The translations under genes and the position numbers were made by a program. DNA of 64,000 nt from Trypanosoma brucei (lineage: Eukaryota): positions 1,216,001 through 1,280,000 of the forward strand of contig CP000066.1 in the NCBI GenBank assembly GCA_000002445.1, in the 5' to 3' direction. Under the pieces are notes generated by a model. It did not search any database and was not told the DNA's origin. It worked only from the letters and a program-made list of their open reading frames with translations. Every line of letters begins with the position of its first letter. Position 1 is the first letter of the stretch. Shown here piece by piece: positions 11,814 through 24,639 of this stretch.

Positions 11814-13331
11814 CTAATATGCTCTGCCTCGGTCAAGATTTGGAGGCGACCACTCATTAACGATAAGTTCGGGGAAAACATTAGGTTTCAAAGTTGAAGT
11901 ACCAAGAAGCATATTGACACACTCTTGGAACCCTTGGGTTATTGCAGGGTAAGCTGTATGGAGCTGACTCAGGTTATAAATCGATTCGCGATTATGAATT
12001 GCCAATGAAGCCAACTCAATAATGCTGCTTGCATGCGGTCCAACAGCTCGCACACCAAGAACCTGCATTTTGTGATCATTTGTAACGATAAGCTTCACAA
12101 AACCGCTCGTATTGCCCATTGCGAGGGCCCGACCCACAAATTCATAACCGTACCTGGCCACCTTGTATGCTATGTGTTCCTTCCTGCATTGTTGCTCATT
12201 GCGACCTACAGCGGCCACCTCCTGATCAAGAAACATAATCGTCGACAGATTGTCCAGGCGTTGAATAAGTTCTCCCTCCGGATATGGACGATACATATGC
12301 TCAATACAGGAACGCGCTTCCAACTCCCCAACGTTAACAAGCGCCACCCTTGAGCCGACATCACCACACGCATAAATATGCTTGTGTGGAACAACGCAAT
12401 AAAACTGGTCACGCTGGATTCGACCCTGCTTCAACTCAACACCGATTTTGTCGAGTCCAATGCTACCCACATTTGGATCCCTTCCTATTGAAACCAACGC
12501 CTTGTCGACCACGTGGTCTGTTAGCCTGTTGTCTCTCAAATCACGCAGCGTGTAACGGAATTGGCCGCCCTCCACCTTGTTGCTTTGCAAAGCAGAATGG
12601 TGGTGAAAATTGACCATCTTTGCCTCCAGGAGCTTCTGAACGAAGAGAGCAACATCATCATCTTCCATTGGCAATATTCGATTAGACTTTTCAATAACAT
12701 TTACTTCGGTAAGTCCAAAGTTCGCAAATATCGATGCAAACTCACATCCTATAACGCCAGCGCCGATAATGACAATGCTTTTCGGAAATGGTTGAGTCAT
12801 TATATCATCGGAAGTGAAGACAACCTCACCGTCGGCAATTACGGAAGCATGTTTACGAGGTTGAGCGCCGCACGCAATGACAAAGTAGTCGGCCCGTACC
12901 TCCTCAATGCCTCCACCCAACAGTTTAACATCGACACTGTGAGGTGACGTAAATGACCCATGACCACATATAACGTCAACGCTAACCTTCTCAAGCTGAT
13001 GAAGAATCTGGCCGTGACGGAACTCTGCTGCGCAATCTATTGATTTCTTAATATTCGAAAAATCAATACATGGGAGAGCTTGACGGCACTTCATAAAACG
13101 ATTGGCGGTTTGGCCGTTCATAAGGCGGACGAATTTTGCCATTTCCCATAACGTCTTCGACTGTAGCGCACCGTTCCAAAGGTCAGCACCTCCAATCCGT
13201 GATGACTCGATTATGCAAGCCCTTTTTCTATAATCCACAGCCCGCAACGCGGCGGCCACTCCTGCAGGTCCTCCCCCTATGACACAAACATCCACATTTT
13301 TCGCCCAGCTGAGCCGGGTTTTAGCAAACAT
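11814..13331 (-). CDS. Dihydrolipoamide dehydrogenase-like FAD/NAD(P)-binding oxidoreductase lacking the redox-active CxxxxC disulfide
   Basis: It has an FAD-binding GxGxxG (DVCVIGGGPAGVAAAL), a second dinucleotide fold (IVIIGAGVIGCEFAS) and a C-terminal dimerisation domain. A LipDH-like H...P...E block (LHTAYPAITQGFQE) is present. Where LipDH has GGTCLNVGCIPSK, this protein has GGADLWNGALQSK, so both active-site cysteines are missing. Confidence 0.75.
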   Translation of the reverse strand: MFAKTRLSWAKNVDVCVIGGGPAGVAAALRAVDYRKRACIIESSRIGGADLWNGALQSKTLWEMAKFVRLMNGQTANRFMKCRQALPCIDFSNIKKSIDCAAEFRHGQILHQLEKVSVDVICGHGSFTSPHSVDVKLLGGGIEEVRADYFVIACGAQPRKHASVIADGEVVFTSDDIMTQPFPKSIVIIGAGVIGCEFASIFANFGLTEVNVIEKSNRILPMEDDDVALFVQKLLEAKMVNFHHHSALQSNKVEGGQFRYTLRDLRDNRLTDHVVDKALVSIGRDPNVGSIGLDKIGVELKQGRIQRDQFYCVVPHKHIYACGDVGSRVALVNVGELEARSCIEHMYRPYPEGELIQRLDNLSTIMFLDQEVAAVGRNEQQCRKEHIAYKVARYGYEFVGRALAMGNTSGFVKLIVTNDHKMQVLGVRAVGPHASSIIELASLAIHNRESIYNLSQLHTAYPAITQGFQECVNMLLGTSTLKPNVFPELIVNEWSPPNLDRGRAY

Positions 13332-14712
13332 TAAAATTATTCGGTAAACCTGATACGATAGCAGGGAAATAATTAGCGGAAGTAAGAGTTTTTCTCAGGC
13401 AGAAGCGACAGAAAGTTAAAATACGCAGCTGAGGGTTATCGTAGAGAGTCAGATGAGCACATATATTTATCTTATGGGAAGTCAAATGGCACACACTGAA
13501 GGAAAGCAGCAACACAAACACCCTATTATACCACTTCCTTCCTCTCAGCGGTGCTTCTAAAACCATTCCCCTTCACTCCCTCCTCCTAGAGCGGACGCGA
13601 CCAGGTGCAAGAGAACGAGAAGGAAAGGCGCAGCGGGCAGATCTGGCCATCCGGACGAGAACACACTAAGCATCCTGACTGAAAACGGCGGTGCTAAGCG
13701 ACAGTGAAGGTGAAAAAAAGAACCACAACAGCAGTGTTACAGCAGACAGCGACACGCATGCAAATTTCGCTTTGCAAGTCAAAGGTAATGGGGAGCGAGG
13801 GGAGTTGGCAAGCGTCCACCGGTAGTGTGGAGCGCGAGGCCCGCGCAGTTCGCCCCACCCTCCATTAACCAGGCCAAACGAGCCAAACAAATCGAAAGGG
13901 GGAAAAGCACGACCACTCCTGAGAGCGACAATATTGCACCCAACCCTTCACACACATCCGTACGGAACCGGAGGCTGCATGAAATTCCGCCTACGGTCAG
14001 CCCAGCATCGGGAATATGGCTCAGCACCGCGCACCCAGCGGTCCCGCCCAGCCCCGCAATAATTCTAAGCAGCGGTCACCGCCCCGACGCCCCCATCACA
14101 TACTTCACCGTCCGAAAGCAAGGAAGCGGCCAGACGTACGTTCAGGCGGACGGGCGGCAACATAGCGCACAAAACCCGGGAGGGTAGTTCAACCGAAGGA
14201 AGCAGCTTCCTCCTCCCCCACCGGAGTCGACGTCAGCATCAAACGAGGAGGAAAACAAAGGAAGACCGGCACCATGCGGCCCCTCGAAAAGAGATATGTG
14301 CGGCGGGTGGTCAAAGCACCCGCGCAAGGAACATAATACTGCAAAGGGCTTTTAGCCCTTTAACGGGCGAGCACAGCCGGTCGGGTATATGACGACGGGC
14401 AAGGGGGCGGCGGATCTGTCCCTAAGAAACGCCGAAGCCATCTTTCACACTCCAGTGCCGCAACAACGCGGTTCCCCCGGGAGTGGGTGGGGCCCGTTTC
14501 TCAGCATGATTTTCCCTCGCCCGAACCCCACTTCGGCTCACTGACGAAAGCCTTTCCGCGCACAGACACCAACAAGAAGCACGACGCGGCAGAAAATCGT
14601 CACAGACGACCACGTAACGGTCTAGCGAACCACTTACACAGTTCCCTTCTTCGAGGGGTAATCCCTTCAGAGAGCCCCTCCTCAGCGGATATCACATAAC
14701 CAAGAGCCAGTT

Positions 14713-14858
14713 CAGTGTCTCACGCCCTTGTTTCCTGGGGGGAAAAAAGCATTGGGAGGGGGCGCGCTACTCGACTTCCCCGGCGCTGGTGGTGGTGACA
14801 AAGCGGTGCCCCCTCCCAATGCTTTTTTCCCCCCAGGAAACAAGGGCGTGAGACACTG
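14713..14858. repeat. Perfect 51-bp inverted repeat (arms 14713-14763 and 14808-14858) with 44-bp spacer
   Basis: The reverse complement of 14713-14763 (cagtgtctcacgcccttgtttcctggggggaaaaaagcattgggagggggc) is identical to 14808-14858. It lies in the ORF-free tract. Confidence 0.9.
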
Positions 14859-17296
14859 AGGTGAAGGAGAACCTTCTGGATGCCCCTCCGAAGTGACCTG
14901 CTAACGACCCCACCGAATAACCGCCTACAGACCCCACTAATAAGCAACTGCCGCACCTTTTCGTTTGGTAACTGTTGATGCGGAGAGTGCGTTTCAACCC
15001 CAACTCCATTTGGCCTGAGGAAGCGGAAAGCATCATTTTGAAGAGGAGAGAAATGTTGACAAGCGCTGTCGTTCTAAGAGGGCAGGCCTAAATACAGTCA
15101 CTATCGAAGGGAGGGGTCACCTGCATAGAGGGCAAAAAACAAATTTGTTCAAGGAAAACCAACCAATCCGAACGATTTTTGATTCTCAAGGGTAAAAAAT
15201 CATCGATACAGCATCACGGATGATATCTAAATTCTTCCTTCGCGCCGTAAAGGGAACCCATTTGGCATCTCTACTGACATTTTCACTGTGTATTCAAGTC
15301 ATCCGTTATTTGTTTATTTATTTTAGAAACGATACACACTTACAAGCGGAGCGCGGCGTCACGTTTTCACCTTAACTCAGCAAGTGCAGGCCCTCTACAA
15401 CCGGAGGTTTGGAAGGGGGCGTTTCGTTTCGTTTGTGCACACCATCCTGCAGGAAAGCATGCCCCTCCACCCTTTCGTACAAAGGTCCGCGCACCACATA
15501 CAGCAAAACCAAGGGTCGAGCCCCCTCCTCTCCCCAACACACACGTAACATTTCAACATGTCGCTGGAAAATGATGCCCAAGGGCAATATATTGGAGGAG
15601 ATCCATTCCTACCAGTTGGATCACCCGAACCCTAACAAAAGCCGGCCACCTTTCTGGGGAATCAGCCCTTGAGTCACCCTCGGCGGCGGATGCAGGTTCC
15701 CTCGAACGTCAGGGAGGAAATCTGCAAAAAAAAAATGTAGTTTTACTCCACAGATCTCTGAAGGTTGATCAAACACACCGCTGTTGAGTTTTCTTTCTGT
15801 TATACAAATGCCCATCGTTGGTGCCATAACTTTCGCCTCCCCAAAATGGAGTGCGCTCTGATGCCACAGGCGTTCTGAGTTCCGCATCCCTAGCAACGGC
15901 TCCCAACCTATTTTCCGCGTGAGGATGGGCACAATTTCAAGGTCACGCAGAGCATACGCCCATAGTGCCTCTTTATTCTGTTTTCAAGAACACTGCGTTC
16001 GCTGGGGGCTATTACCCACATTAGCTCACCCAGTGGTCTTTGTTCTTCGTCCTTCACTTGAAAAATATCACTCTGGGAGCGCCTTTCCATTTGAGGCGTG
16101 TAGTTGTGTTAATGACCGGTTTATCCGGGACTGTGAAAGAACAGGCTTTGCGATCATGATGAGGGAGGCTAAGATTGGTGTTGATGGGCGGAAAATTCCC
16201 TCGCGATGCCGGCCACCTCATCATGGGTCTAGGGTCCAGTACACCATCTCATCGGGTTAAGCCAAGAGCCAGCAGCGTTCTTCTCCAGGGTAACACTGCT
16301 CTGCCCGGCTGCGGCATCATACAGCACAGGGATCAGCAGCGTCTTGCTGGGACACCGCTTTTCATTTGTCGGTCCCTGGGTGTGTGCCAGTGTGCCATCA
16401 GCGGCAGAACGGATGGTGTTTTCCTTGAAAAAGCTGTGCGTCTATTTTTCCGCAACCGTTTCAGCACTGCGATGGAAAGAATATTGAAAAAAAGTGTTTA
16501 ACAACAAGCTTAAGAGGAAAACTCAGTGATGAACAGTGTTGGCGATGGTGGAATTGTCTGTGCTCGTTGATTGTTGTGTGCATTGTGCGAGTGATAAAAG
16601 CGTGTTTTATCTACATGTTTCTTCCGTGCGTTCGTTTCCTTCAATATTATGCACTCTAGCCTTTAGGCGAAAGCCTAAGCATCCGCGCAGTTTCCGCACA
16701 TACCGCAATTTACACTCGTTATTTTTGGTTGTGTACTCGTTGCCGACGGCTGGAAACTCTGAGTGTGAAGAAATCGGGAATCTCTGTGGGGCCCGTGCTC
16801 TTGGACGTAATCTCACCGTTTGTGAAAAGAGCGCCTTCATTGCGGAGATCGGGTGGCCTAGTGGAATGAAAATGGTCAACACGTACCACTTCCCCCACAC
16901 AGGGACAAAAACGTGGTAGTTCCAGAGAGCGATCTGGGCAACAAATATAACCTTGCACAAGGAAGCTCTTTTTCACGGCATGCGCAACTTTTTTCTTTGT
17001 TTGAAGGATGCGGGTGCAAAGTTCGAACAGGTACGTCAAAGGCTTATGCGGGATGTCACTCTGTCCTTCGAAGGACCTTTCTCGTTCCGATACCAGTGCG
17101 CCAAAAACGAAACTTACGCGGAAACGCCTCCACGCGCAAACCTCTTCTCGCGGCGCCAGCTGTTGGGGAGACGGCAACGTCAACTAAGTAAAGGCCTCAA
17201 ACCCGACGGCAGCGGAACGAAAACAGGAACCGACGCCACGCATTCGGACGCCAGCCCCGGCGCTGCTGACCCGTCTCTTTTGAAGCAACACAAATC

Positions 17297-17425
17297 AAAA
17301 ATTTAAATAACAAGAACTTTGTCACGAGGTTAATTTTTCTCTCCGGAGCGGTTGTTGATTTAGAGCAGTTGCCTGAAGTCATGGTTAAGGGGTTCGGTTC
17401 CCCGGTCATCTGTCGTTTTTTCCAT
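17297..17425. ncRNA. Candidate small-RNA/tRNA-like element ~100 bp upstream of tRNA-Ser(AGA); strand and identity unresolved
   Basis: On the plus strand, 17389-17421 reads GGGG-TTCGGTT-CCCC-GGTCATCTGTCG-TTTTTT, i.e. a T-arm-like hairpin, an acceptor-like 3' strand and a T6 terminator. I could not fold an anticodon arm, so it is not a canonical tRNA. Read on the minus strand, the same interval starts ~100 bp divergent from the tRNA 5' end, the spacing kinetoplastids use for tRNA-dependent pol III small-RNA genes. It ends at an Sm-site-like AAAUUUUUG (plus-strand A-run 17297-17301). Confidence 0.25.
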
Positions 17426-17523
17426 AAAGCGCTTTTCTCAGAGCCTTCGGCCGGCGTCGTGTAGCATACATAAATATAAGTACGTCAAATTTTAGTAAAT
17501 TTAGTAAAGAGGTCGGCGCACGT

Positions 17524-17604
17524 GTCACCATACCCAAGTGGTTACGGGGACTGACTAGAAATCAGTTGCGATCTCGCGCGCAGGTTCGAATCCTGCTGGT
17601 GACG
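17524..17604 (+). tRNA. tRNA-Ser (anticodon AGA), type II with long variable arm
   Basis: The cloverleaf was folded by hand. The acceptor is GTCACCA/TGGTGAC plus discriminator G. The anticodon stem is ACTGA/TCAGT with loop CTAGAAA. The variable arm is long. The T-arm is GCAGG-TTCGAAT-CCTGC. A T6 run follows at 17605-17610. Confidence 0.88.
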
Positions 17605-17610
17605 TTTTTT
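17605..17610 (+). terminator. Pol III T-run terminator (TTTTTT) after tRNA-Ser(AGA)
   Basis: A T6 run lies immediately 3' of the tRNA. Confidence 0.7.
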
Positions 17611-17809
17611 CGTCAATTCCCCGTGTTCCGCTGCTTTTGTCCAGTCAACTTTTTTCCGTAACAACAGCGATTGGGAATTGGGAAACGGTACGCGCACCAC
17701 AGGCCAGTTGTGACCACCAAGCAACACAGAGACGCCGCGGAGGACGGACAGCGTTGGGCAACACCGCTCCGAAGGGTGAAAACAATCAGCCGATTTGGGT
17801 GCGAAAAAG

Positions 17810-17891
17810 TGACAAGAGTGGGGTTTGAACCCACGCCTACGAATAGAAGAGAACTTGAGTCTCCCGCCTTAGACCACTCGGCCATCTTGCC
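17810..17891 (-). tRNA. tRNA-Leu (anticodon CAA), type II
   Basis: The minus-strand sequence is GGCAAGATGGCCGAGTGGTCTAAGGCGGGAGACTCAAGTTCTCTTCTATTCGTAGGCGTGGGTTCAAACCCCACTCTTGTCA. The anticodon loop is CTCAAGT, the variable arm is long, and the T-loop is TTCAAAC. It is followed on the minus strand by C+T5 (plus-strand A-run 17804-17808). Confidence 0.88.
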
Positions 17892-17950
17892 ATCGACGGC
17901 CACAACAGATTTGTTTTAGACACTTTTTTTATTTATGCAATGCCAAAAAC

Positions 17951-18031
17951 CGTCACCAGCAGGATTCGAACCTGCGCGCGAGATCGCAACTGATTTCGAG
18001 TCAGTCCCCGTAACCACTTGGGTATGGTGAC
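17951..18031 (-). tRNA. tRNA-Ser (anticodon CGA), type II; identical to the Ser(AGA) gene except position 34
   Basis: The minus-strand sequence equals the 17524-17604 tRNA with a single change in the anticodon loop (CTCGAAA vs CTAGAAA). A T5 run follows on the minus strand (plus-strand A-run 17945-17949). Confidence 0.88.
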
Positions 18032-18112
18032 ACCGCCTCGCCACCACCTCTCAAATGCGTTACCCTTGCACAAGCGATCGATGCCGTGATTTTTTTGTGC
18101 GTTTCTGTGCGA

Positions 18113-18360
18113 TGCGGAGTGTGAAGCGGTTGGTGGTGGTTTGCCGTCCTCCAACGGACGGCCGCCAGTCACTTGTCGTATGAGCCGATAAAGCTGCGCC
18201 GGAGTTTTCCTGGAAGTCCTCTCTGAACAATATAACTGTGGGATGTGGACGCAGAAATTTGTAGGGCTTAAAGTCACGGCGTCAAGTTGCAGTGCCAGTC
18301 GTTGATGGGCGGGCCACCATCGGATAAGAAGGGTGGGGGACACTACGCGCCACAGAACAG
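18113..18360 (+). ncRNA. Candidate structured GC-rich RNA element divergently positioned ~95-100 bp from tRNA-Ser(CGA) 5' end
   Basis: The hairpin GCCGUCC-UCCAAC-GGACGGC lies at 18142-18161. A long-range complement pairs GGUUGGUGGUGG (18129-18140) with CCACCAUCGG (18314-18323). A TTTT run is at 18204-18207. I looked for the SRP-RNA helix-8 AGCAG/GNRA signature and did not find it, so the identity is unknown. Confidence 0.2.
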
Positions 18361-21300
18361 CACTATGAGACTATAAAAATGAGGTAAAGCCGCACATGAG
18401 CTTGTTGTAGTCACTCAGTTATGTGGTGGAGCGTCTCACGAGTCGGCGCGGTGGCCATGGCAAATGGAAAGGACATTGGATCATCACAGTACCATTACAA
18501 GTGCACATCTTTCGGTGCTTTGTTTTGGAGTTAAAGAAGATGGAAGAGTCGGAAAATTTTCTTCAATTTAACACCACTAACTCAGTGCTCTTGAGCTTCA
18601 CTATCAACAGTTTCCGTTTGTGGCTCGTGTGTCCCAAGTGTCCACAAGGTTTGTACGCCTCGGGCCTCTCGGAACAGTAACGTGCCTGCGGATTGTGGAG
18701 AAAAAGTGGATAGTAAAATTAATGAATGTAGGGAGAACACGCCCTATGTACTGATTTTTTGTGAGCTTTTTTCTCGTGTTAGAGACTCACCCGCTCAAGT
18801 TACTGCATTCTTCAGGCTATGGGGAAGGCCATATTCAAGAAAATTGGCTGTGTGAACAGCAGCTGCCTCTGAATAGAGCAGGTGAATCACCGATTGGGCC
18901 TCCATGACTTTCCCACGGTGGGGAACATAAGAATTCCACATATTAATGTCCACGGAGCCGTGCAGATAGGCGTTTTTATGTTCCTAAAAACCTACTAGCG
19001 TCAACCGTGTTGGCACAACAGCGTTGAAGCCGTCTCTAGAGTCTCCGCTGTGGGGAGTAATCGGCGTTTACTTTCCTGTGAGATGCCCGTTCACCTCCAT
19101 TATTTCACGACATCAAAAAAAAAAACGTTCCAAACTTGGTTATGTGGATACTTAATGTTCAAGGGGTCAAGTACACGGGTCGAAAGTTTCATCGTTTCAA
19201 AAAATTTATTACCAGCAATGTTAGGTGTGTATTGAACTGTTTTTTCCGGGAAAAGTTGGTAAATGAATCTGTCATAGGGAAACTTGCCACCTTCACCAGC
19301 CCATTCTGAACAACAGCCCCCAGCATGTAGATTTTGAAATACGCATTGTTTTCCACGGGATTCGCACCGGTTTCTTCTGCGCGCCTTTGTGTTTTCGCTT
19401 ATCGCTCTGAAAGTCACATTTTTTTGTGGAAACATCTGCATGGTTCCCCTCGATTATTTCTTCGGTCCGGGCGCCGCATGTGCGTGAATTTCTGTCGATG
19501 TGTGTCCCAACAGTTGGATTGCCTCTTCAGTCTTTACTGAACCTTGTTGACTTCTACGTGCGCTGCGTGGGTTGCCTGCAGCGTGCTTAGGGTCATTTTA
19601 CCTTGGGATGCTCTCTGTTCCCGTGCCGAAGTGACGGCTGTAGTTGAACCGTTGTAATGAGCTTAAATGATCCTTTGCTGCGTGTCCAAAATGCTCAAGT
19701 ACTATGGACGCCCCACCCCCTGGGATGAAGTTGCCACACCAAGAGCACCGGCCACGATTACTCGTGCGGATGAAGCCGCGGACTTCCCACCGATTTGAAT
19801 GTCACCGTACTTATGGTCGTGTTGGGCGCCGTTGGCGTCTTACAAGCCACCAGCACTTTGACTCATGATGTTCCAGCGTCTTGTGTTTCATTTCCCGGAG
19901 TACTGGTTTTATCTGCTCTACTATACCAAATGTATGCGGTTGCTGCGATCCACGTGAGAAAATACGAACTGCGGTGCGCACTGCGTAAGTCTGTCTAGTC
20001 AAAGCTTTTATTTGGCCCTTTTCGCCGCATTTTCCGCTTGTAAAAAAAGTTGATCTCGGCACACTTTGTTTTACTTTCTCTAAATATTGCTCCAGTCAAT
20101 ATGTTTGGAGTCTTCTGCAGCCTCTTTCCCTATTTTTGGTGCCTTTGAATATTCTCGTCCAGCTAGTTTTTCTCTTTTTTTATTTTCTCTGGCTAGTCTC
20201 GCCTTTTCTCCTTCATAAATTAACTTATATAATTGGCGTTCTGCAGTTGCAAGTTTGTTGGTACTCTCGTTTATTCCGCTGCTTTTCTGGAGTATATCTT
20301 CCCTCCATCCTCATTTTTCCTACGTTCTCGTTTTTGCTGGACCACTGTAGTTGAACGCCGTTGTAATTTTCCTAACATCTGTTGAAACCCATTGAAACTT
20401 CATTGTGATCTCCACTCTCATATAGGTTGTGAAATTTGACAAGTCTTCTAAACATCGACTCACTGCCTTCGTTCGTGTCGGTTTCACGGGTATTGTGTCG
20501 CTTCAGTGGTGCAACCTGGCACTTGTGCGTGCGTGTCTGCTAAAAAATTTGTTTTCTCAACACAGAGAAGTGCTGGCATGGACTAGGTGCGTGGTGAAAC
20601 TACTAACCTACGTTGTTTTATTTTTTTTTGTTAAGTTATAAAAGGAAATCTGGAAAATTTGAAAGGTTATAAGATTCTGGCACAGTTGCCTCCTTTGTGT
20701 CTCCGATGTGCTGGTCAAGTCCTCCATGACTGTGCTCAACTGAATCAAGTATCATCTCTAAGTTTAGAAACGTCGCTACGATTCAAGAAAATGGCTTTCC
20801 CCCAGTTTGATTGCTTTTGCCGCTTCGGAAATGAAGTTGGTGGTGGCCGTCCATGGTCGAAACCTTTACTGGCGTATGCGTTTCTGCCCTTCCAAGCAGT
20901 CAAGTCGCTGAGCTACCACTCACCCCCTATTACGTTGCACACTCCATAGTAATGTCAGGGCCCATATTCCAGATGAGAGGGAAAACCGAGCGTGTTCATC
21001 AATTCTGTTCCTTAGTGATTGGGGCCGGCAGATGATTGTCGGCCTCCGGGGGGAGCAGGCATCAAAGTCATCGGTTCTCGGGGATGAAAAGGAACATCAC
21101 CTTACCCTTCTGCAATCGTGAGGGCACCTTTTCGGTGGTCTGTAGGCCAGCACAGTCATCAAGCACGCTCTACAAAAATAACCCGGACACAATCCCACAT
21201 GGATCGCAATGGGGAGCTAGGGAGCTCCCACAGCCGAAAAGATTCGCTTTGGCAAAGCAACTTCACAGTTACGACGTCAATTTCTGAATTTTGCGAGGAT

Positions 21301-23475
21301 TACGTGTGCCCAAAGAAGCGGAATACAAAAATGAAATATTAACAGAAGACCATAGAAATTGCACGGCCCTGAAAATGAAGACAGAACCAATACTTGAAAC
21401 GGGTAGCGACGGTATGCTTTGGGCCCCGCGATGTACAGGGAGGTATGAAAGAGCATCGGCTAAATCGATGCCGGGCAGGGGCTATAAGTCACATTTCTGC
21501 CAACATATCCCTAAAAAGCGGAAGCGGCCACAAGGCGAGCGCCGGATTCGCTCCGCCCAACAGTTAGCGCATTGATGACCGGTGCCGATATGAACTGGAG
21601 CAGTCGGGAGTTAGCTCCATACACACAGCCAGGCGAAGCAGGCTGCCTCGTCCAGGGGCATTTGGAAGGGAAACTGAGGAGAGCCAACTCTGGGAAGGCC
21701 GCAATAAAGCCTCGAAGGCGTAACTGGTCCTCACAGCTGGGCGTGGCCACATACGGAGGGTGCTGGGTATTAAACTGGAACTCGAAATTGAACTGAATTA
21801 GCGACAGCAATAGAATCATATTCTAAGTAGGGATGTGCATGAATGCTGATAAAGTCATTTTTTTTGTACTTTCACCACACACTACTCGCAGAATAAGAAC
21901 GATTGAATAGCTTGCCAACAAACACAGGTGCACGGGGTAAAGAATGGCTCGAGCGTGACCCAAAGAAAATAGGAATATAAAGGAGGTTACGCTATTGTCT
22001 CCGGTAAGAATGGAAACACAGACGACAACACCAAAAACAGATACACTGGCGCAACACTTCTTGAGCAAAGAGCTGAAAATCTTCTAAATGGAATGACGTT
22101 ATGTGACAATGTAAGCGGAAAAGTAGCGGAGAAACATAAGGTGAAAAGTCTAATCAAAGGAAAGACACAGAGTGATGGAGAGGAAAAACATTTAAGGCAA
22201 GAAACACAGAAACAGCAGCCATCAACTCAACCAATCAGGAATTCCCACCGAGGTTACAAAACACGCAAGAAATAATTGTCACCAGGCCATTGCCGATAAA
22301 GGGACGGCTGCAGCTGTAATATCACCGGGGGCTGAGGAAGTAAGGACATATTATTTCCATGGAACAAGCAAACTAACGCGCAGTTGCTGAGCAAAAGGTG
22401 TGGCAACGGAAGGAGGACCCAGAGCATTTATTGGCATTTGGGGAAACGGTTAAAGAGCGGAAGGACATTGGCGGCACTCGCCAACTTACTGTCCCCACGA
22501 TTAACTCTAAAAATAGGTCCTGCGAAAGTAAAGGAAGGGATGCTATGATGGACGTGGAAACACAGGGCGAAATTAACCAAAGGCGTAGAACCAACCATCA
22601 GGTCAACGTTTTCACACTGTCGGACAAAGAAAAATTATGAAATGGAGCGAAAACCCAACGAGGGCAACCTCACTTCAAAACAGTGCTCGGCGTGGTAGAC
22701 GGGGATTGCCACCGCAGTGGCGGAAAAGTTGAAAAGGAATGGCGAAGGGAAGCGGTACCCAATGTCTATGGCCAAAAAAAATATGAGAGGTCCTTGCCAA
22801 AGCGTGCCTCCCTCCGGGTAGTTCCGGCGAACTCACTGGAAAGCCAACAGCACGGTCGCGAATAGGGGCGCCCCGCACGTAACCGGGGGCTGTGTAGTGG
22901 GACTGAGAATTTTGTGGCAACTCCTCCTCCTCCTCCTACCTTTTACTGAGGTTCAAGTAACTTTTCCCTTTCCCCAGGAAATTGCAGGTCGAATTTTTGG
23001 CATTTCAGATGATGCGAATTATCGCTGTGAGTCGCTTGTGGCATCAGCAGTAAGAGCCTGGAAACGCCTCCGGGTCGCGTTTAAACCGCCCGGCTTCGAA
23101 CTAGCAGTGTGCGACGCACTGGGCCGGTGCCGTTGCGCACACAAAGAGGGCGGCTGCATTGTCAGCGGCTTATTCCAATATTGCGTGAGGGGCATTTCAG
23201 AAACTGCTGAACTTGTGGCGTTTGAGCATTTTTTCATTTAGAAAGGGAGAAAAGATGAGATATCTGCCATGCTACTTTTCGGATGAAGTAAGTTTGAGCG
23301 TTGCCGCAGCCCTGATAATGCGGCGGTGGGAGTGGTAGTGGCTAGATGATTTTAAATGTTACAGTGATTGGGTGGATGCTGTGGGTGAATTTTAAGTAGG
23401 AAAATGCGACCACTCAGAGGCTGCCTCTCCATTTGAGTTGCTGGTGTTTCGCGTTCGCGCAGGATATCCAATGGG

Positions 23476-24639
23476 TCATACGTCCTTCACTGCCCCTACC
23501 TCCGTCCTGAGTGATTGATGTCGCAAAGCGACATCCTCCACCTTGTAGAACTCCTTCTGCACAAGGTTGTCAAGCGCGTCGGCCACCAGGGCTTTCTGCG
23601 ACAACTGGGACCTGAGTTTCTTGCATTCCATGTCCGCCTGGCAGCTTATACGACTGATGCGTGCGCTAAGGTCGGCCCGACCATTATGTAGTTGCTCGAC
23701 ATCTGAAGATATTACCTCCACGTGTTGTTTTACACGCTGAAGGTTTCGAGTAACCCACTGTCTTGTCGTTTCTATTTCTTCCATGAGCAATGCCCGCGCC
23801 TGCTTCGCCTCGTTACCTAAAGTCACCACGGTGCCCGCAGTCTTGTCAACCTTTTGCTCCAGCGAACTGAGCGACTGGGTAATACCGTCAATTTTTTCTT
23901 GAAGCGGTGGAACCCGTGAATAATCCCGTCCTACTGACATCTCCAAATCCCTTAAAGAGCTTTCCACGAGCCGTAATTTTTCACGAAGGGTATCTTGCGC
24001 CTCTTGCCTTGACAAGTCCTTCTGCTCCGCCTCGCCCCACAGGGATGCGATCCGCTCCTCCACATCTCTTCTCACGTCACTCACTGTGTTTTCTATGCGT
24101 TGTTTCGTTCGTGCCGCTTGCTCTTCTCCGTCGGCTCGGATCTTCGCCAGATCACTCAAAAATGCTTGGTGGGCATCTTCTAATGTTTCCTGTACCTTGG
24201 AAATGATGAATTGTTTGAATGTTTCCATATCCTCTAACCTTGCACAGGCCTGCTCTAACCGTTTTAACCGCGACAGCAGCTCCTGCTGCTGAAACCTGAT
24301 GTCGGCCTCCTTTTCCTCTTGGATTCCTTGGGCTAGTTTCACCAACTTCGTAAGGTTCACCATTTTTTCATCGAACATACACACGCGGGCGGAGAGCTCC
24401 TCTACTCGATCAAGCAACTGCTGAACAGAGAAGGCGCCCTTCAACATCCACTCCACTCGTGACTCGGCGGCTGAGTCCACCTGTGCCGACCTTAAGGGCT
24501 CTTGAGGAGATACACTTTCCTTCTTTCGTGGCCGCAAATATATGTCAGTGTAGTCCATCGCTCGCACTGCGTCGGACAATCGTCTTGTTATGCTTTCCAA
24601 AAATAACAAAAGTAATGTAAAAGAGATGTGGGAGAGCAT
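23476..24639 (-). CDS. Coiled-coil protein, hypothetical (first gene downstream of the ORF-free tract on the far side)
   Basis: 387-aa ORF with continuous heptad-like charged repeats (EELSARV...LEQACARLEDMETFKQ...). The hydrophobic N-terminal 27 residues may be ORF extension, and the real start may be Met28 at 24558. Confidence 0.55.
   Translation of the reverse strand: MLSHISFTLLLLFLESITRRLSDAVRAMDYTDIYLRPRKKESVSPQEPLRSAQVDSAAESRVEWMLKGAFSVQQLLDRVEELSARVCMFDEKMVNLTKLVKLAQGIQEEKEADIRFQQQELLSRLKRLEQACARLEDMETFKQFIISKVQETLEDAHQAFLSDLAKIRADGEEQAARTKQRIENTVSDVRRDVEERIASLWGEAEQKDLSRQEAQDTLREKLRLVESSLRDLEMSVGRDYSRVPPLQEKIDGITQSLSSLEQKVDKTAGTVVTLGNEAKQARALLMEEIETTRQWVTRNLQRVKQHVEVISSDVEQLHNGRADLSARISRISCQADMECKKLRSQLSQKALVADALDNLVQKEFYKVEDVALRHQSLRTEVGAVKDV

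Follow-up and report, generated by a model that had tools for sequence, protein, structure and literature searches.

An inverted pair of serine tRNA genes differing only at the wobble position in Trypanosoma brucei: probable ancient paralogues kept alike by purifying selection and occasional gene conversion

Both a change of anticodon between isoacceptors and concerted evolution by gene conversion are textbook behavior for tRNA gene families. In Drosophila, tRNA-Ser4 and tRNA-Ser7 carry the CGA and AGA anticodons, respectively, are approximately 96% identical and belong to a multicopy family that includes hybrid genes; the same anticodon pair is found there on a near-identical body that bears signs of exchange. 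The T. brucei genes described here differ from the Drosophila system in that they are single-copy and no hybrids were seen. The serine tRNA genes of S. pombe were the first case of concerted evolution by intergenic conversion (Amstutz 1985, Cell 40:879, via PMC4981973). There, dispersed serine paralogues are kept alike by the non-reciprocal transfer of short tracts. The kinetoplastid genes resemble them, as copies from one genome are closer to each other than to their counterparts in other lineages and the tracts reach into the flank. The S. pombe conversions were observed genetically and occurred between genes for the same codon, whereas the kinetoplastid events are deduced by comparison and concern isoacceptors. 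Additionally, the kinetoplastid wobble base stays distinct, and conversion is undetectable in T. brucei itself.

Eukaryotic isoacceptor shifts involve the first anticodon base in 39 of 44 cases, and serine is among the families in which shifts occur without a covarying change of the body (PMC3923123; PMC4981973). The T. brucei paralogues are similar to such shifts, also termed tRNA remolding, in that they differ only at the first anticodon base. In remolding, however, the anticodon is changed at a syntenic orthologue, whereas here it is constant at that position, and at most an ancient shift can be proposed. The closest structural relatives are the trypanosomatid tRNA clusters, which two surveys describe as small, occupying both strands and ending in short T-run terminators (PMC2695483; PMC12204681). 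The T. brucei locus is structurally no different from the cluster catalogue and is a member of it, and the passages searched contain no mention of identical AGA/CGA bodies or of matching flanks. The cluster itself is already known, as it is annotated and lies within the published tRNA set, and its presence is no surprise.

The cluster is located on T. brucei chromosome 3, within a 64-kb stretch of DNA that was analyzed as a whole (the window). ARAGORN was run over the whole window, and calls were also made with the Rfam model RF00005 (gathering score, 29 bits). Both methods revealed exactly three tRNA genes in the window, all within 17524-18031, and the features of the cluster were as follows.

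17524..17604, plus strand: tRNA-Ser(AGA) gene, class II, 81 nt (ARAGORN; RF00005, 57.9 bits)
A17557-G17558-A17559, plus strand: anticodon of Ser(AGA) (sequence)
17605..17610, plus strand: Pol III terminator of Ser(AGA), a T6 run (sequence)
17605..17809, no strand: 205-bp spacer between the convergent 3' ends of Ser(AGA) and Leu(CAA) (sequence)
17804..17808, minus strand: terminator of Leu(CAA), a T5 run (sequence)
17810..17891, minus strand: tRNA-Leu(CAA) gene, class II, 82 nt (ARAGORN; RF00005, 54.3 bits)
17945..17949, minus strand: terminator of Ser(CGA), a T5 run (sequence)
17951..18031, minus strand: tRNA-Ser(CGA) gene, 81 nt (ARAGORN; RF00005, 59.2 bits)

The two Ser genes are in inverted orientation and separated by 346 bp, and Leu(CAA) lies in tandem with Ser(CGA), 59 bp downstream of it (gap, 17892-17950). 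An earlier, sequence-only reading of this DNA had described a plus-strand Ser gene, a 205-bp gap, a minus-strand Leu gene, a 59-bp gap and a minus-strand Ser gene, each with a T-run terminator. These coordinates agree exactly with that description, and the T6, T5 and T5 runs are present in the raw sequence. The same reading had proposed a check with tRNA-finding programs, and all three genes passed it with scores well above 29 bits.

Both Ser genes have a long variable arm of 13 nt, UGCGAUCUCGCGC, and a G as the discriminator (G73) after the acceptor stem. A long variable arm and a G73 discriminator are serine identity features. The A box, read directly from the sequence, is TACCCAAGTGG (positions 8-18), with C at A-box position 5 and A at position 6, and the B box is GGTTCGAATCC. 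A survey of these genomes reports C5 and A6 in the A box of all class II genes, as well as T runs downstream of all Tritryp tRNA genes (Padilla-Mejia 2009, PMC2695483). With an intact cloverleaf, both A and B boxes and a downstream T run (T6 or T5), the two genes have the appearance of eukaryotic class II tRNA-Ser genes with a predicted Pol III type 2 promoter.

The surroundings of the three genes were also examined for further elements. A tRNA-like element, suggested by GGGGTTCGGTTCCCC together with a T-run motif at about 17385-17421, had no Rfam match at E ≤ 1, and ARAGORN at relaxed thresholds returned only implausible folds for an extra tRNA near the cluster. The 205-bp spacer (17605-17809) contained neither an RNA family nor a tRNA remnant by Rfam and relaxed ARAGORN. 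A scan of the locus for bacterial-type promoters and terminators gave no matches; such a scan is not relevant to Pol III genes.

All large open reading frames (ORFs) of the window are on the minus strand, and the tRNA cluster occupies the middle of an ORF-poor interval between two of the protein-coding arrays.

13332..23475, no strand: ORF-poor 10-kb interval holding the tRNA cluster, between two minus-strand protein-coding arrays (ORF list)
11814-13331, minus strand: dihydrolipoamide dehydrogenase (GCVL) ORF, one border of the interval
23476-24639, minus strand: conserved hypothetical ORF, the other border of the interval

No ORF above 154 aa is present in 13332-23475, and the GC skew reverses its sign within this interval. 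Gaps of this type in trypanosomatids usually coincide with the termination and restart of Pol II. According to the tRNA survey, clusters inside gene arrays have acetylated-histone peaks after them, which mark Pol II restart (Padilla-Mejia 2009, PMC2695483). Judged by its layout, the interval is probably a region of Pol II termination and restart. A protein of T. brucei equiperdum chromosome 3 matches the 23476-24639 ORF with 100% identity, and T. b. equiperdum is colinear with the region of the interval (98.35% over 11.2 kb); the trypanosomatid origin implied by the sequence-only reading is thus correct. The gene-free gap also contains a perfect 52-nt inverted repeat with a 44-nt loop (14712-14859), approximately 1.4 kb upstream of the GCVL ORF in the minus-strand sense. 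This hairpin is 97% conserved in T. b. equiperdum (contig L005, 19708-19853), and it gave weak matches to several miRNA-precursor models on both strands, which signify a long hairpin only.

The T. brucei tRNA set contains one gene each for Ser-AGA, Ser-UGA, Ser-CGA and Leu-CAA, and the mature anticodon of Ser-AGA is IGA, as given in Table 1 of the survey (Padilla-Mejia 2009, PMC2695483). The same survey reports similar use of the UCU, UCC, UCA and UCG codons in T. brucei, at 1.16-1.35% each (Padilla-Mejia 2009, PMC2695483). Because they are single-copy, Ser(AGA) and Ser(CGA) are each the sole source of their own anticodon in T. brucei. After deamination of A34, Ser(AGA) would be read as IGA and would decode UCU, UCC and UCA, while Ser(CGA) would decode UCG and Leu(CAA) would decode UUG. 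Taken together, the three genes, all with internal A and B boxes and a brief T run as terminator, appear to be ordinary, functional and Pol III-transcribed genes of T. brucei that have already been catalogued.

Upon alignment and base-by-base comparison of Ser(AGA) with the reverse complement of the minus-strand Ser(CGA), we found 80 of 81 positions to be identical. The only difference is at position 34, where A17557 faces a C (the complement of G17998). The sequence-only reading had claimed identical bodies apart from this base, and no additional differences were found that would contradict it. The identity extends slightly beyond the genes: the arms of the inverted repeat are 89 nt long and match at 98% (17522-17610 and 17945-18033), and each comprises the gene, two upstream bases and the T run. 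This repeat is one of only two of at least 25 nt in the surrounding 10.2-kb region. Beyond these 2 nt and the T run, the flanks of the two T. brucei genes are unrelated, with local-alignment z values of -1.2 for the 5' flanks and -0.8 for the 3' flanks.

The orthologous loci were identified by retrieving the DNA around the orthologues of both flanking proteins and then scanning it for tRNA genes. The GCVL gene and the conserved gene of 360 aa served as landmarks, and the following arrangements were found.

T. theileri: a same-strand Ser(CGA)-Leu(CAA) tandem, in that order, immediately downstream of the conserved 360-aa gene
T. melophagium: tandem as in T. theileri, plus an inverted Ser(AGA) 0.9 kb upstream of GCVL
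T. cruzi (two assemblies per side): tandem as in T. theileri, plus an inverted Ser(AGA) 430 bp upstream of GCVL
L. braziliensis and Leptomonas pyrrhocoris: tandem as in T. theileri; interval without Ser(AGA)
L. infantum: Ser(AGA) (LINF_310035700) on chromosome 31, adjoining Phe(GAA)
T. vivax (two assemblies): the interval contains an inverted Ser(AGA)
T. brucei and T. b. equiperdum: the interval contains an inverted Ser(AGA)

Ser(CGA) and Leu(CAA) also lie downstream of the orthologue of the conserved gene in T. vivax, where Leu(CAA) is inverted. An inverted Ser(AGA) was present in all five Trypanosoma with the interval recovered (5/5, counting T. b. equiperdum); the T. theileri flank that was examined contained no Ser(AGA), and the T. 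grayi contigs (L006 and L010) stop short of the tRNA interval and were excluded from the synteny comparison. By these arrangements, the Ser(CGA)-Leu(CAA) tandem is ancestral to trypanosomatids, and the inverted Ser(AGA) of the interval characterizes Trypanosoma as a genus. In T. melophagium, Ser(AGA) is located 5.6 kb from Ser(CGA) and adjoins a tRNA-Thr(AGU) gene (L007, 17077-17149), which lies 139 bp downstream of it. No counterpart or remnant of Thr(AGU) was detected by Rfam at the T. brucei locus.

The anticodons were also found to be stable at these positions. The gene adjoining the conserved 360-aa gene is CGA in nine loci, and upstream of GCVL, T. cruzi, T. melophagium, T. vivax and T. 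brucei all have AGA. The A/C difference, whose conservation in other trypanosomatids the sequence-only reading had proposed to examine, is conserved at each syntenic position. That reading had also interpreted the pair as an example of anticodon-shift evolution, in which a single substitution "therefore" created two isoacceptors from a duplicated gene. We found no shift at any orthologous position, and in all Trypanosoma examined the two genes retain their respective anticodons. The identity within T. brucei is insufficient for this conclusion, since purifying selection alone gives the same picture. By the synteny-based definition there is no anticodon shift at this locus because the anticodon is constant at each syntenic position; when an isoacceptor shift is instead recognized as an anticodon difference without a body change, the pair shows one (80/81, position 34 only). 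The two Ser genes are best read as ancient paralogues, not recent duplicates. They likely originated by duplication followed by substitution of the wobble base, an origin that is undatable and not recoverable from the sequence. Two kinetoplastid-like contigs from ENA metagenomes (L013 and L014) encode GP63 (Peptidase_M8), GCVL, Omp85 and a dynein heavy chain, with the GCVL-Omp85 adjacency conserved. No tRNA genes were present upstream of GCVL in these outgroup candidates, and for this reason they give no polarity.

We then compared the gene bodies themselves. One and the same 80-nt body is found in the AGA and CGA genes of T. brucei, T. melophagium and T. cruzi; in T. theileri, where Ser(CGA) was the sole Ser gene retrieved, that gene shares it as well. 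LINF_310035700 of L. infantum agrees with the T. brucei Ser(AGA) at 81 of 81 positions, and Ser(AGA) is without change in every Trypanosoma examined. As evident from these comparisons, the serine tRNA body is under extreme purifying selection. The T. brucei data alone need no concerted evolution because orthologue identity is as complete as paralogue identity. Private substitutions were confined to the CGA genes of T. b. equiperdum (L005, 16535-16615) and T. vivax (L004 and L023). The T. b. equiperdum Ser(CGA) carries C6T, which gives a G-U pair and is absent from its own Ser(AGA). In T. vivax, Ser(CGA) carries C5T and C22A, plus T16C in one assembly, and the neighboring Ser(AGA) is unchanged.

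Evidence for homogenization was found in relatives of T. brucei. Metagenome contigs were scanned for the shared variable-arm and T-arm sequence, which gave eight pattern matches; five of the eight were GC-rich, bacterial-looking coding sequence and were dismissed as chance matches. One contig (L022; Ga0169931_10365108, 640-866) carries its own, divergent AGA/CGA pair of Ser genes at a spacing of 63-65 bp, and position 34 is again the sole difference between the two. Compared with the Trypanosoma body, the L022 pair differs at eight positions that form four compensated stem pairs (4:69 G-C, 5:68 U-A, 27:43 G-C and 28:42 U-A in L022); this comparison is unrooted and does not polarize the direction of the changes. 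Eight identical changes cannot have arisen independently in two paralogues, so that a conversion or replacement, at least one, must postdate the split of L022 and Trypanosoma, whatever the placement of L022. Two further contigs (L016 and L019) contain Met(CAU), Leu(UAG) and Ser(UGA), and their Ser(UGA) also has G4. A kinetoplastid origin of the metagenome contigs is supported because the tRNA order and orientation of L016 and L019 are those of L. infantum chromosome 34. The ORFs of L022, L016 and L019 are not coding-like.

The Leishmaniinae Ser(CGA) looks like a mosaic in this comparison. It disagrees with the Ser(AGA) of the group at the pairs 27:43 and 28:42, to which 5:68 is added in L. infantum. 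In L. braziliensis and Leptomonas, Ser(CGA) combines a Trypanosoma-type acceptor stem with an L022-type anticodon stem, a combination whose polarity is unrooted. The L. infantum Ser(CGA) additionally has U5:A68, as in L022, and the anticodon stem of the L. infantum Ser(AGA) is of the Trypanosoma type. In Trypanosoma, CGA is a neighbor of AGA and carries the AGA-type anticodon stem.

The 3' flanks of the two genes, which lie outside the mature tRNA, were likewise compared within and between species, and two species showed matching tracts.

L007 11620-11672 and 17236-17288: matching 3' flanks of T. melophagium
L002 11426-11457 and L008 9459-9489: matching 3' flanks of T. cruzi

The T. melophagium flanks of AGA and CGA match at 52 of 53 positions in the one assembly, with the genes 5.6 kb apart, and the matching tract stops approximately 53 nt past the gene. 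In T. cruzi, 28 of 30 positions match, and the genes are kilobases apart. In both species alike, the score of the flank match was reached by none of 500 shuffles. The 3' flanks of T. melophagium and T. cruzi do not align with each other. In the sister species T. theileri and T. melophagium, the 3' flanks of CGA are clearly different, while the 5' flanks of CGA are still similar. Flanks that match within a species in this manner would be the signature of conversion tracts that arose after speciation and covered the 3' part of the gene together with its flank. No similarity between the AGA and CGA flanks was found in T. brucei or T. vivax.

The sequence-only reading had proposed concerted evolution of the body. 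This proposal held for the family, on the evidence of L022, the Leishmania CGA genes and the flanks of T. melophagium and T. cruzi, and no direct sign of it was seen in T. brucei itself. Within-genome paralogues are closer than between-lineage orthologues for the L022 body and for the T. melophagium and T. cruzi flanks, and T. brucei alone is uninformative in this respect. Ongoing homogenization was not seen in the T. brucei lineage, where there is no flank homology and where T. b. equiperdum and T. vivax retain private CGA changes. Since these changes persist, homogenization is episodic, not continuous.

On this evidence, our preferred reading, to which we assign a probability of roughly 0.85, is that all three are functional Pol III tRNA genes and that the Ser pair is ancient and has stayed alike through purifying selection together with occasional conversion. 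The UCN serine tRNA genes would be homogenized now and then by gene conversion between paralogues, as shown in the relatives and presumed for the T. brucei lineage. Conversion that overwrote position 34 would be selected against, and position 34 would stay different because each gene is the sole source of its own anticodon. The most serious competitor dispenses with conversion altogether: the two genes would have evolved independently since an ancient duplication, with every position of the body frozen by purifying selection. Much of the data is compatible with such a history, as Leishmania and T. brucei have the same Ser(AGA), Ser(CGA) is unchanged across four Trypanosoma species, the flanks are dissimilar in T. 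brucei and T. vivax, and T. vivax and T. b. equiperdum still carry their CGA-specific substitutions. Selection of this kind nevertheless leaves three observations unexplained, namely the four compensated stem pairs that both L022 genes share in their difference from Trypanosoma, the unselected 3' flanks, which agree inside T. melophagium and inside T. cruzi yet differ from one species to the other, and the agreement of the Trypanosoma CGA with AGA at exactly the two anticodon-stem pairs where the Leishmaniinae CGA differs. We consider it unlikely as an account of the whole family, and for the T. brucei branch taken singly it is a possible explanation.

Two other explanations fared considerably worse. 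If a local inverted duplication had taken place recently on the T. brucei branch, with one A/C substitution at position 34 after it, the two genes would be too young to have diverged, and the 80/81 match between inverted genes only 346 bp apart is what would be expected from such an event. The homology, however, ends at the gene borders, T. vivax, T. melophagium and T. cruzi have both genes in syntenic places with the anticodons unchanged, and a Leishmania gene on another chromosome matches Ser(AGA) at 81/81. Because both genes are syntenic in the three Trypanosoma species, a duplication confined to T. brucei is discounted, and we regard it as highly improbable. It is even less probable that one Ser copy is a non-functional relic or pseudogene, for which the redundancy of the sequence is the sole argument. 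Both genes score far above the gathering threshold with the cloverleaf, the A and B boxes and the terminator intact, each is the sole source of its own anticodon, and both are conserved across the genus.

The order of the genes was found to be different in T. vivax. In both T. vivax assemblies, the order is Ser(CGA) on the plus strand, 893-894 bp, Leu(CAA) on the minus strand, 65 bp, and Ser(AGA) on the minus strand (L004, 11567-12775; L023, 1208-2415). Read in the same sense, the T. brucei order is Ser(CGA) on the plus strand, 59 bp, Leu(CAA) on the plus strand, 205 bp, and Ser(AGA) on the minus strand. In all other species Leu(CAA) has the opposite orientation and follows Ser(CGA), whereas in T. 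vivax it follows Ser(AGA) at a distance of 65 bp. This pairing is the one irregularity in the otherwise constant anticodons, and an inversion accounts for it just as well. Exactly this flip of the segment would result if the two inverted Ser genes crossed over 3' of the anticodon, and the observed order fits such an event. Alignment of the T. brucei and T. vivax spacers in the orientation predicted by an inversion gave z = 0.7, while the control orientation gave -0.4; divergence has left no homology between these spacers for the comparison. We tentatively suggest, at rather less than even odds, that the Ser pair is an active recombination substrate throughout the genus, in which one isoacceptor gene repeatedly donates its 3' half and up to about 50 nt of its flank to the other, crossovers take place and selection holds the wobble bases apart. 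The tracts would begin 3' of the anticodon and act even across 5-20 kb. Occasional crossovers would flip the segment between the Ser genes, which would leave Leu(CAA) inverted and attached to Ser(AGA) in T. vivax. If true, such recombination would represent natural gene conversion bounded by an essential single-nucleotide difference.

Our results add modestly to what is known of these genes, and the gain is comparative: the UCN serine tRNAs of kinetoplastids behave as one family whose bodies co-vary by lineage. A small addition is provided by the two Trypanosoma species in which conversion tracts appear to extend into the 3' flank between genes for different isoacceptors. The family also calls for caution, as trees of parasite tRNA genes do not record history and synteny is needed instead. 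In T. brucei, the Ser pair may serve as a natural matched control, with the same body and either A34 or C34, for work on the ADAT2/3 wobble deaminase, and it could also be used in studies of codon-specific decoding.
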